A DNA stretch of 64,000 nt, taken from positions 2,304,001-2,368,000 of the forward strand of contig CAWBKB010000001.1 of NCBI GenBank assembly GCA_963789265.1. Reading direction: 5' to 3'. The translations under genes and the position numbers were made by a program. This stretch comes from an uncultured delta proteobacterium. Lineage in GTDB: Bacteria > Desulfobacterota > Desulfomonilia > Desulfomonilales > Desulfomonilaceae. Below are positions 23,234 through 24,685 of this stretch, piece after piece; positions within the stretch are counted from its first letter, which is position 1; the number at the start of each line of letters is the position of its first letter. Below the pieces are notes generated by a model that was not told where the DNA came from, did not search any database, and saw only the letters and a program-made list of their open reading frames with translations.

Positions 23234-23394
23234 GAGCCATGATACTCCATCCAACGACAAGAGGCACCAGAATTCGGATCTCCCACAGTTATGATCCTAG
23301 GGTCACCCATTAAAAGGTCCTCTGTCAGGTCTATTTTTTCGGATTAGATTGCCATTTCTCTAGTTGCCTCAGCCCGTAGCGACTGTGTTGATTG

Positions 23395-24336
23395 TCAAGC
23401 AAAAACTTCTCGACAAGGTTGTCGGTCCCTGAGGACGGCATTTGCAATGACAAGCAACTTTCGCATGCAGGCCACTATGGCAACTTTGTAGAGTTTTCCC
23501 TCTTTCTCCAGTCTTTGGTAGAAGGGCCTGATCGTCTTGTTGTGCCTCGCGGCCGTCTTGGCGGCCATATAGAGGACGGTTCGTATTTCTTTCCTGCCGC
23601 CTATGCAGGATCGCTTTCCCCTCCTCTTCCCGCTGTCCCGGTTGAGAGGAGCCACACCGACGAGGCTGGCGATTTCCTGGCGGCTGACCTTCCCCAGTTC
23701 GGGGAGATGTGCCAGAAGGGTTCTGGCGGTCACGGGCCCAATGCCTTTGATGGTTTTCAGGAGTTTTACGTCCTCTTGCCAAAGAGGGGATTGCTTGATG
23801 GTGGTGTCTAGATCGTCGTCGATCTGCCGTATCTCCCGATCCAACGCGTCGATGACAGCCCTGATGCTCTGTCGAATTCGTTCTGTCCGAGCCTGGTGCA
23901 AACGGTTCTTTTCTCCAAACCGTAAGTCGACGAGCTGCCGACGACGGCTAACGAACTCTTTAATGAGCCTTTCTTCCTTTGTGGGAAGAAGCGTCAAGCG
24001 TGGCTTGATGGCTTCGCCATAACGGGCGAGAACCAGGGCGTCGATGCAATCGGTCTTTGCCAACTGTCCCATGGCCTTGGCAAAGTCCCGCACCTGACGT
24101 GGATTGACGATTGACACGGGCAACTCAGCCTCGATCAGCAGAGCAGCGGCCACGGCTTCATAACCACCGGTGGCTTCGAGGATGATCACCTCAGGCGCCT
24201 TGGGTCGAAGGCGCTTTACAAGCCGACCAATATCTTTGGCATTGTTGTGGCATTGCCATTTTTCATTGGATGGCAACACATGAATGTCCAAGGTTTCTTT
24301 CGCAACGTCTATGCCAACAAAAACTTTTTCCGCCAA
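23395..24336 (-). CDS. IS110 DEDD recombinase/transposase
   Basis: GIDVAK, LEATGGY, KTDCID (DEDD) and C-terminal RDSGK serine; intact 313 aa. Confidence 0.95.
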
Positions 24337-24339
24337 GTG

Positions 24340-24600
24340 TAATCTCCCTTCCTTGCGGATGCGGACTCACAAGATGGTCCTGGCGACTGTCCGGGGATGT
24401 TTGCACGTCGGCCTCCGGCGATCCAGCTACGCGACAGCCATCAATAGCTAAGGATGTGACGATCTGCCGGTGCCTCCGCGTGGTACGCTGGACAGGTACC
24501 ATGCGGGCGTGCATCCCCCCCTTACGCGGAAGTACCGTTTTTCACAAGTAACTAGGTACTTCCTAGTCAATCTTCCCCCCACTGTCGAAGGTACGTTCAT
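24340..24600 (-). ncRNA. Putative IS110 bridge RNA (boundaries approximate)
   Basis: Contains segments matching the reconstructed target (24451-24459, 24427-24431) and donor (24383-24390, 24352-24355) in the expected order. Confidence 0.8.
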
Positions 24601-24685
24601 AAAAGAACAAATACCTGGTAGAAACATACAAGGATGTGGCGAATTCCGCATCTCGCGAGATGAACCGCATCGCTCGCGGCATGAC

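Follow-up and report, generated by a model that had tools for sequence, protein, structure and literature searches.

An IS110-group insertion sequence, very probably IS621-like in its working, in a REP/REPIN repeat of an uncultured Desulfomonilaceae-like bacterium

Introduction

The window analysed here, a stretch of 64,000 nucleotides (nt) from an uncultured delta proteobacterium (assembly GCA_963789265.1, contig CAWBKB010000001.1, positions 2,304,001 to 2,368,000 of the forward strand), carries on its minus strand an insertion sequence of the IS110 group (IS110 family), which is, with high confidence, intact, recently active and working like IS621. Directly established are the anatomy of the element, the family and catalytic residues of its recombinase, the complementarity of four guides, a matching second insertion site, the position of the guides in loops, and covariation across a clade of related elements. 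The mechanism has already been described for IS621; the element is a further well-supported example, and the picture of the class is unchanged. New here is the target, the GTAG end of the host's own repetitive extragenic palindromic (REP) repeats and their paired form (REPIN), which follows the same logic as the insertion of IS621 in Escherichia coli REPs.

Background on IS621 was taken from Durrant 2024 (PMC11208160; loop polarity, guide lengths and dependence on the junction promoter) and from Hiraizumi 2024 (PMC11208158; linkers, split right donor guide and handshake guides; structures 8wt6-8wt9). The IS621 RNA was compared by means of the residue names printed in PMC11208158.

Element anatomy and boundaries

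The features of the element are listed in Table 1. Its 5' CT is followed by TGTATGTT... and its 3' end reads ...ACAGTCG-CT; the left flank GCCACATC precedes the first CT and ACGG directly follows the last. The non-coding left end measures 296 nt (24632-24337) and the right end 17 nt (23394-23378), and a long left end with a short right end is the arrangement of the IS110 group, not of the IS1111 group. The CT core dinucleotide is found at both ends, and long terminal inverted repeats are absent. The same core is present at every locatable end of 29 related copies (25 left ends, 28 right ends). The outer limits are the ends of a 99% identity with a second genomic copy, beyond which the two have nothing in common. 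The boundaries proposed in the initial annotation, with one CT counted to the target, fit the repeat members that carry no insertion, both here and in other genomes of the genus; these read ...CACATCCTAC / GTAGGATGTG... across the join.

Table 1. Features of the element and its flanks (window positions)
Feature	Positions	Strand	Remarks
Whole IS110-group element	23378..24632	minus	1253 bp plus one CT; CT core at both ends (24632-24631, 23379-23378)
Left target flank, host REP/REPIN-like repeat (...GATGCGGTTCATCTCGCGAGATGCGGAATTCGCCACATC)	24633..24686	minus	terminal CTAC (GTAG on the other strand) split by the element
-10 half of junction promoter, TATGTT	24623..24628	minus	promoter formed only once the ends are joined
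Clade-specific 5' extension	24515..24616	minus	hairpin H1 24616-24589, G6 tract 24580-24575, hairpin H2 24563-24528, G7 tract 24521-24515
5' stem-loop, counterpart of that of IS621	24476..24506	minus	11-bp stem with one mismatch; 10 pairs counted, 6 changed on both sides, 85% of cells paired
Target-binding loop	24415..24470	minus	outer stem CCGGC-A-GATC / GATCGCCGG, A bulged
Inner stem-loop of target-binding loop	24449-24436	minus	between left and right target guides
Donor-binding loop	24346..24395	minus	basal stem CCC/GGG; inner stem-loop 24380-24363 between the donor guides
Recombinase gene	23395..24336	minus	313 amino acids, TTG start; catalytic D10, E54, D96, D99, S235
Weak terminator-like hairpin and T-run	23411..23424	minus	within the gene's 3' end, shortly upstream of the -35 half; consensus match only
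-35 half of junction promoter, TTGACA	23393..23398	minus	overlaps the TGA stop codon of the recombinase gene
Right target flank ACGGG	23373..23377	minus	CTACGGG together with the core

Recombinase

The recombinase matches the Pfam families PF01548 (DEDD_Tnp_IS110; 2.6e-21, 76.5 bits) and PF02371 (Transposase_20; 5e-20, 72.1 bits) above their cut-offs, and the NCBIfam equivalog NF033542, 'IS110 family RNA-guided transposase', with 235 bits (cut-off 140). A phmmer search of the PDB returned ISCro4 (3.8e-35) and IS621 (9e-34), aligned from recombinase residue 4 or 5 to residue 307. Residues D10, E54, D96, D99 and S235 align with residues 13, 62, 104, 107 and 243 of the IS621 chain (8wt6). This chain has two extra N-terminal residues, and the aligned residues are therefore the native D11, E60, D102, D105 and S241, which are named as catalytic in the structural description of IS621 (PMC11208158).

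Guide sequences

All four guide segments of the initial annotation were found on the minus strand exactly where it had placed them, and three of them exceed the length that it had given. The left target guide is TCACATCCT at 24459-24451 (RNA UCACAUCCU). The right target guide has the core CGTAG (24431-24427) and is better read as CGCGTAG (RNA CGCGUAG, 24433-24427), because this form matches the flank of the second copy in 7/7 positions, against 6/7 for the window copy. The left donor guide is ACAGTCGC at 24390-24383 (RNA ACAGUCGC), and the right donor guide, CAAG at 24355-24352, extends to AUCCGCAAG (24360-24352), split as in IS621 (AU-CC-GCAAG). Each right guide is followed by a two-nucleotide handshake guide, CU at 24426-24425 and GA at 24351-24350. 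The order and strand polarity of the four guides are those published for IS621. Mismatches of the left target guide at both genomic sites consist of U opposite a bottom-strand G, so that all nine positions are paired at each site when wobbles are counted (by eye).

Chance agreement was estimated with 100000 shuffles of the 294-nt left end. A target pair was scored as a left guide, one mismatch being allowed, with a right guide after it within 45 nt, and a donor pair as an exact left guide followed by a right guide. The target guide pair arose 101 times, the donor guide pair 54 times, and all four guides in order 0 times, and chance is therefore excluded.

Loop structure

Ten left ends of orthologous elements were aligned, one per genome; G058 was omitted on account of its truncated left end. 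In the RNAalifold structure of this alignment the target guides occupy the 5' and 3' sides of an internal loop between an outer stem (CCGGY-bulge-GAUC / GAUCRCCGG in the clade), which is 100% paired, and a short inner hairpin, which is 92.5% paired. The donor guides surround a second inner hairpin, 100% paired and with three compensated pairs (RNAalifold and pair counts). The position of the guides in internal loops, which had been named as one of the points on which the first interpretation could fail, was thus borne out.

Over the whole 41-pair structure, 93.6% of cells hold standard pairs, compared with 35-46% when the partners are slid by 1-3 columns, a control that favours the structure because the structure was derived from the same sequences. 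Pairs changed on both sides number 16, against 6.6 in shuffles, and none of 500 shuffles reached 16. Details of the IS621 paper recur here: the bulged outer-stem base, a G directly preceding the left target guide, GU as the linker to the right target guide, GG (or GA) ahead of the left donor guide, and a right donor guide composed of AU, two unpaired bases and GCAAG. The 3' GGG strand of the donor-loop basal stem lies within the Shine-Dalgarno region. A scan of 23200-24800 against Rfam 15 (E up to 10) gave three chance matches (E 1.3-8.2) and no bridge-RNA family.

Covariation of guides and insertion sites

A DNA search of 70 genomes of the family found related elements in 25, this genome included, with 63-66% DNA identity and 54-60% protein identity. 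From 11 of these genomes 29 copies were examined, 25 of them with both flanks and four lacking a left end (contig ends or truncation). Guides were located within each element by fixed anchors. For the target guides these were GATCG ahead of the left one and CU(A/G)G(A/G)UC behind the right one; for the donor guides they were CCG(A/G/U) ahead of the left one and, for the right one, AAG with two bases in front of GGG. The target guides were scored against flanks over the 12 non-core guide positions.

Cognate guides and flanks scored 8-11, with a mean of 9.36/12 (25 copies); the mean of 516 non-cognate pairs was 4.64, and one of these reached 10. With one row per genome (9 genomes) the sum was 86/108, whereas permuted assignments had a mean of 51.4 and a maximum of 81, and 0/20000 reached the observed value. 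At least five clearly different target sequences occur among the clade copies. In G030 the left target guide UUCGCCCCU stands against the flank GTCGCCCCT and the right guide CCCGAAG against CTTCGGG; the corresponding pairs are AUUGGCACU with ..GGGCACT and CCAGCAG with CTGCTGG in G047, and AUUGUGUCU with TTCGTGTCT and CACGAAG with CTTCGTG in G059. The left donor guide tracks the right end, being ACAGACGC in G030 and G039 and ACAGTCGC elsewhere.

In IS621, position 7 of the non-cognate DNA, not that of the cognate DNA, is the pairing partner of the handshake guides (PMC11208158). Here, both bases of the donor-loop handshake dinucleotide pair with target positions 6-7 in five of nine genomes and one base in the other four. 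Handshake and target positions are GA and TC in this genome (G000), GG and CC in G045, UG and CA in G047, and AC and GT in G059. The first base pairs with target position 7 in all nine genomes (by eye), and the target-loop handshake C faces donor G7 in 27 of the 28 copies with a right end found. The architecture of an IS621-type bridge RNA, as first read from this element alone, is supported by the protein, the guides, the ends and the covariation in the clade.

One G030 locus (C40:44028-46568; L021:1501-4046) holds two related elements head to tail, 11 nt apart, the second with a reading frame broken into several tblastn matches. This is either a repeat cluster with adjacent targets or an insertion beside an existing copy.

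Second genomic copy

This genome is represented by 9 contigs (6.06 Mb). The only other full copy, at C6:453242-454495, is 99% identical and has an intact open reading frame (ORF). It is flanked by ...GACCACACC|CT and CT|ACGCGAGC, the window copy by ...GCCACATC|CT and CT|ACGGGC. The sites of other copies had been suggested as a check, and the second copy indeed stands at CCACACC-CT-ACGCG, related to the CCACATC-CT-ACGGG (CACATCCTAC) of the window. It sits exactly in the TAG stop codon of an open frame of 241 codons (L002:1500-1502), where the flanking T and the terminal core's AG together restore the stop, and the 241-codon gene is therefore not extended. The two copies differ at 7/1255 positions, five of them at element positions 76-136, two in the ORF and none in a guide. 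Together with two open ORFs that retain all catalytic residues, this points to recent transposition. Loose contig ends at the element in one public run (X1) reproduce the flanks of the second copy and of an 81-bp fragment described below.

Target site in host REP/REPIN repeats

The sequence CACATCCTAC occurs at 40 exact sites in the genome, all but one or two of them in the context ...GATGCG(G/C)TTC-stem-GGGTTCA(C/G)CACATCCTAC (by eye). Inverted pairs, 12 in number, account for 24 of the 40 sites, at a distance of 35 nt in one pair and 87-122 nt in the other 11; loosely defined members with an inner arm amount to 62 sites. Examples of inverted pairs are C3:88500/88622 and C1:461662/461754. The closest genomic relative of the window left flank reads through as ...ATTCACCACATCCTACCGC, and the first ~50 nt of that flank are repeated in this genome and in 4/6 genomes of the genus. 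Uninterrupted relatives in four genus genomes start (G/A)TAG(G/C)GATGTGGTGA... (uninterrupted copies: GTAGGATGTGG), in agreement with the flanks as joined after loss of the element with one CT.

The genome has at least two genes for REP-associated tyrosine transposases (RAYT), with 81 and 85.8 bits against the NCBIfam cut-off of 80 (C3:99581-100036 and C7:408822-409436). One only has a repeat pair within 1 kb, and there is only a weak tendency of these repeats to flank RAYT genes. The repeat fits the description of REP/REPIN sequences as a short imperfect palindrome with a GTAG end, many extragenic copies and inverted pairs, in a RAYT-bearing genome. Sister genomes have different repeat sequences, each matched by the guides of its own element.

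IS621 inserts at the ...GGC-CT-AC end of E. coli REPs, with the REP target ATCAGGCCTAC (PMC11208160). The present element targets a REP end as IS621 does, and its left target guide is therefore set to the REP of its own host. A protein that reads the REP hairpin could choose the target instead, RNA complementarity being incidental or secondary; the window copy directly adjoins the REP stem-loop, and the ISPpu10 preprint describes a target stem-loop that adds specificity (10.64898/2026.03.19.712850). We regard this as highly improbable: the second copy, at a stop codon with no evident REP context, nevertheless fits the guides, and guides change with flanks across nine genomes, which a fixed protein-DNA contact cannot explain. 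In addition to RNA-guided recognition, the REP stem-loop may contribute to specificity.

Junction promoter and proposed mechanism

Joining the right end to the left end gives, at the sequence level, TTGACA, a 17-nt spacer and TATGTT, in agreement with the promoter predicted in the initial annotation. The -10 position holds TATGTT, TATATT or TATGAT in all ten orthologous left ends. The orthologous right ends inspected have TTGACA at ~13 nt from their end, one G027 copy having CTCGACA. Terminator-like consensus sites numbered 3, against 1.5 expected.

According to the IS621 model, the element would excise as a circle with the predicted junction of right and left ends ...TTGACAATCAACACAGTCG-CT-TGTATGTT..., and the promoter so created would drive transcription of the left end as a bridge RNA of ~270 nt. 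The recombinase, with its DEDD RuvC-like domain and serine Tnp domain, would bind this RNA. UCACAUCCU would anneal to the bottom strand of CCACA(T/C)CCT and CGCGUAG to the top strand of CTACG(C/G)G, and strand exchange would take place at the CT core, aided by the two handshake dinucleotides pairing with the opposite partner. Landing at the GTAG/CTAC end of host REP/REPIN repeats would offer dozens of mostly intergenic, presumably harmless sites.

Several points weigh against this reading. Transcription, circle formation and catalysis are steps that we infer from the IS621 model. At the window site the right target guide matches only 6/7 positions, and the first base of the left target guide forms a wobble, not a Watson-Crick pair. 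The donor-loop basal stem consists of only three G-C pairs, on which covariation is uninformative because they are invariant, so that it is neither supported nor contradicted. The covariation counts overstate independence because the clade genomes are kin. An empty allele of the exact locus was not found in six genus genomes searched with each flank; the right-hand gene is conserved there (90% in G026), the intergenic part is not, and the left TetR-like gene has no DNA match. The public runs that carry the sequence are all stored as contigs and include no RNA run; four of them gave neither a contig over the element ends nor a circle junction, both of which lie beyond what contigs can reveal.

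The remaining points bear on mobility. The element might be structurally intact yet have lost its mobility in this host, as a relic of recent date with no production of its RNA. A consensus scan of 23300-24760 found no sigma-70-like site in the integrated element. Both full copies start with TTG, where ATG is given for eight of nine orthologues and GTG for two (G044 and G047). There are two full copies only while 40 exact CACATCCTAC sites stay free, and activity may therefore be low. We nevertheless hold a relic to be quite unlikely, given the recent transposition to which the close identity and the open, catalytically complete ORFs of the two copies point; IS621 likewise relies on a promoter that arises only at the junction (PMC11208160).

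5' extension of the predicted RNA

The 5' extension adds ~100 nt upstream of the ordinary 5' stem-loop, and ~145 nt precede the target loop. Single-sequence folds of all ten orthologues give hairpins and then, right in front of the core, a G-tract; 109-156 nt precede the core, and the G-tract columns are invariant in the ten-sequence alignment. More distant relatives have shorter left ends without G-tracts (by eye). The initial annotation had noted extra hairpins at 24476-24506 and 24551-24567. Both exist, and the second is nested in a longer 9-bp hairpin (24563-24528); the first is the ordinary 5' stem-loop of the IS621 type and is not extra, and the truly additional part lies further 5', at 24616-24515.

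Downstream of the target loop, a GUG(C/U) segment has two possible partners: UGCAC ahead of the 5' stem-loop (6 pairs, 93% paired, 2 compensated) and UACAC just upstream of the start codon (4 pairs, 95% paired, 1 compensated). With the latter partner, the donor-loop stem would become longer and cover the Shine-Dalgarno GGGAG. It is tempting to see in the clade a new structural class of bridge RNA, with a 5' domain of ~100 nt and mutually exclusive GUG(C/U) pairings that would switch the transcript between guide RNA and recombinase mRNA; this is speculation, and we think it unlikely.

The ~145-nt region 5' of the core may also be separate from the bridge RNA; it would then be, for instance, a regulatory or leader RNA, a site of protein binding or an independent transcript. 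IS621 needs merely a 33-nt 5' stem-loop before its target loop (PMC11208158), the region aligns poorly and varies in length as given above, and five of the seven differences between the two genomic copies fall in or just after it, one of them turning an A-U pair into G-U. Against this, the region lies between the junction promoter and the core and would therefore be co-transcribed with the core, and its hairpins and G-tracts recur in every orthologue aligned. Such a separation is possible, if doubtful, and the extension is here counted to the predicted bridge RNA.

Comparison with known elements

The element shares with IS621 the domain pair, the five catalytic residues, the CT core, the long left and short right ends and the junction promoter. 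Common to both are also the order of 5' stem-loop, target loop and donor loop, a left target guide of 9 nt and a left donor guide of 8 nt, the split right donor guide (AU-CC-GCAAG here, AU-UU-GCAAG in IS621), the GU linker before the right target guide, the bulged outer-stem base, and a handshake base that pairs with the partner's position 7. The donor ends are nearly the same (ACAGT..-CT-TGTAT), both elements target a ..CTAC REP end, and each tolerates one G-U/T wobble in the left target arm; IS621 tolerates a G-T pair in its natural target (PMC11208158, PMC11208160).

Differences from IS621 are the distant protein (phmmer 9e-34), the left target guide, which is CACATCCT here (the REP of this host) and ATCGGGCCT in IS621, and the natural right target guide of 7 nt instead of 4. 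The predicted RNA of ~270 nt compares with 177 nt, and the ~145 nt before the target loop with 33 nt; the RNA is longer because of the 5' extension with its two G-tracts and two hairpins. Here UGCACG/CGUGCA may form a common closing helix for the 5' stem-loop and the target loop. The host is Desulfomonilaceae-like, whereas IS621 comes from E. coli.

The best solved relative is the ISCro4 transposase (PDB 9t56; 3.8e-35 over residues 4-307), likened by protein alignment only. ISPpu9 and ISPpu10 of Pseudomonas putida are IS110-family elements that likewise lie in a repeated intergenic palindrome of the host, with the target beside a stem-loop (10.64898/2026.03.19.712850); the host and the repeat family are different, and the likeness is one of description. 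The IS1111 group (e.g. IS4321/IS5075) belongs to the same family and shows RNA-guided targeting of repeated sequences. Its RNA lies in a long right end, and its inverted repeats are subterminal (PMC11208160), unlike the long left and short right ends found here. No literature was found that joins IS110 with Desulfomonil- lineages or 'bridge RNA' with RAYT; the supplementary lists of Durrant, with thousands of orthologues, may already include the element or its clade.

With this element, an uncultured lineage of sulfate reducers contributes a bridge recombinase that has been retargeted in nature. Nine sister elements, in which guides, ends and handshake bases have drifted together, form a natural 'reprogramming series', in which the published pairing rules are confirmed without recourse to E. 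coli. The element is another instance of the adoption of host REP repeats for safe landing. Engineers of these systems may find a use for the natural right target guide of 7 nt and for the extended 5' RNA domain.

Further observations

An 81-bp right-end remnant, outside the window at G000:C1:2416346-2416426 (L003:1483-1586), adjoins CT|ACGCGAGC. In front of it stands an inverted copy, 18 nt long, of its tip plus flank (CGCGTAGCGACTGTGTTG), and the junction shares a GTTG microhomology with the interior of the element. An origin by guided inversion was considered and dropped, the breakpoint not lying at the CT core of the inverted junction; the remnant is not a simple product of core-to-core recombination. 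A contig of another public run (X4) contains an element of 90-95% similarity whose recombinase gene has lost 282 bp internally (window 23844-24127).

A 28-nt segment of the right flank (23299-23327) is 93-97% identical at five other places in this genome and is also present at several places in each of the six genus genomes, and is a second small dispersed repeat. Beyond the left-flank REP, the 60-nt stretch 24686-24745 has a 93% identical copy 3.9 kb away, at 28563-28621.

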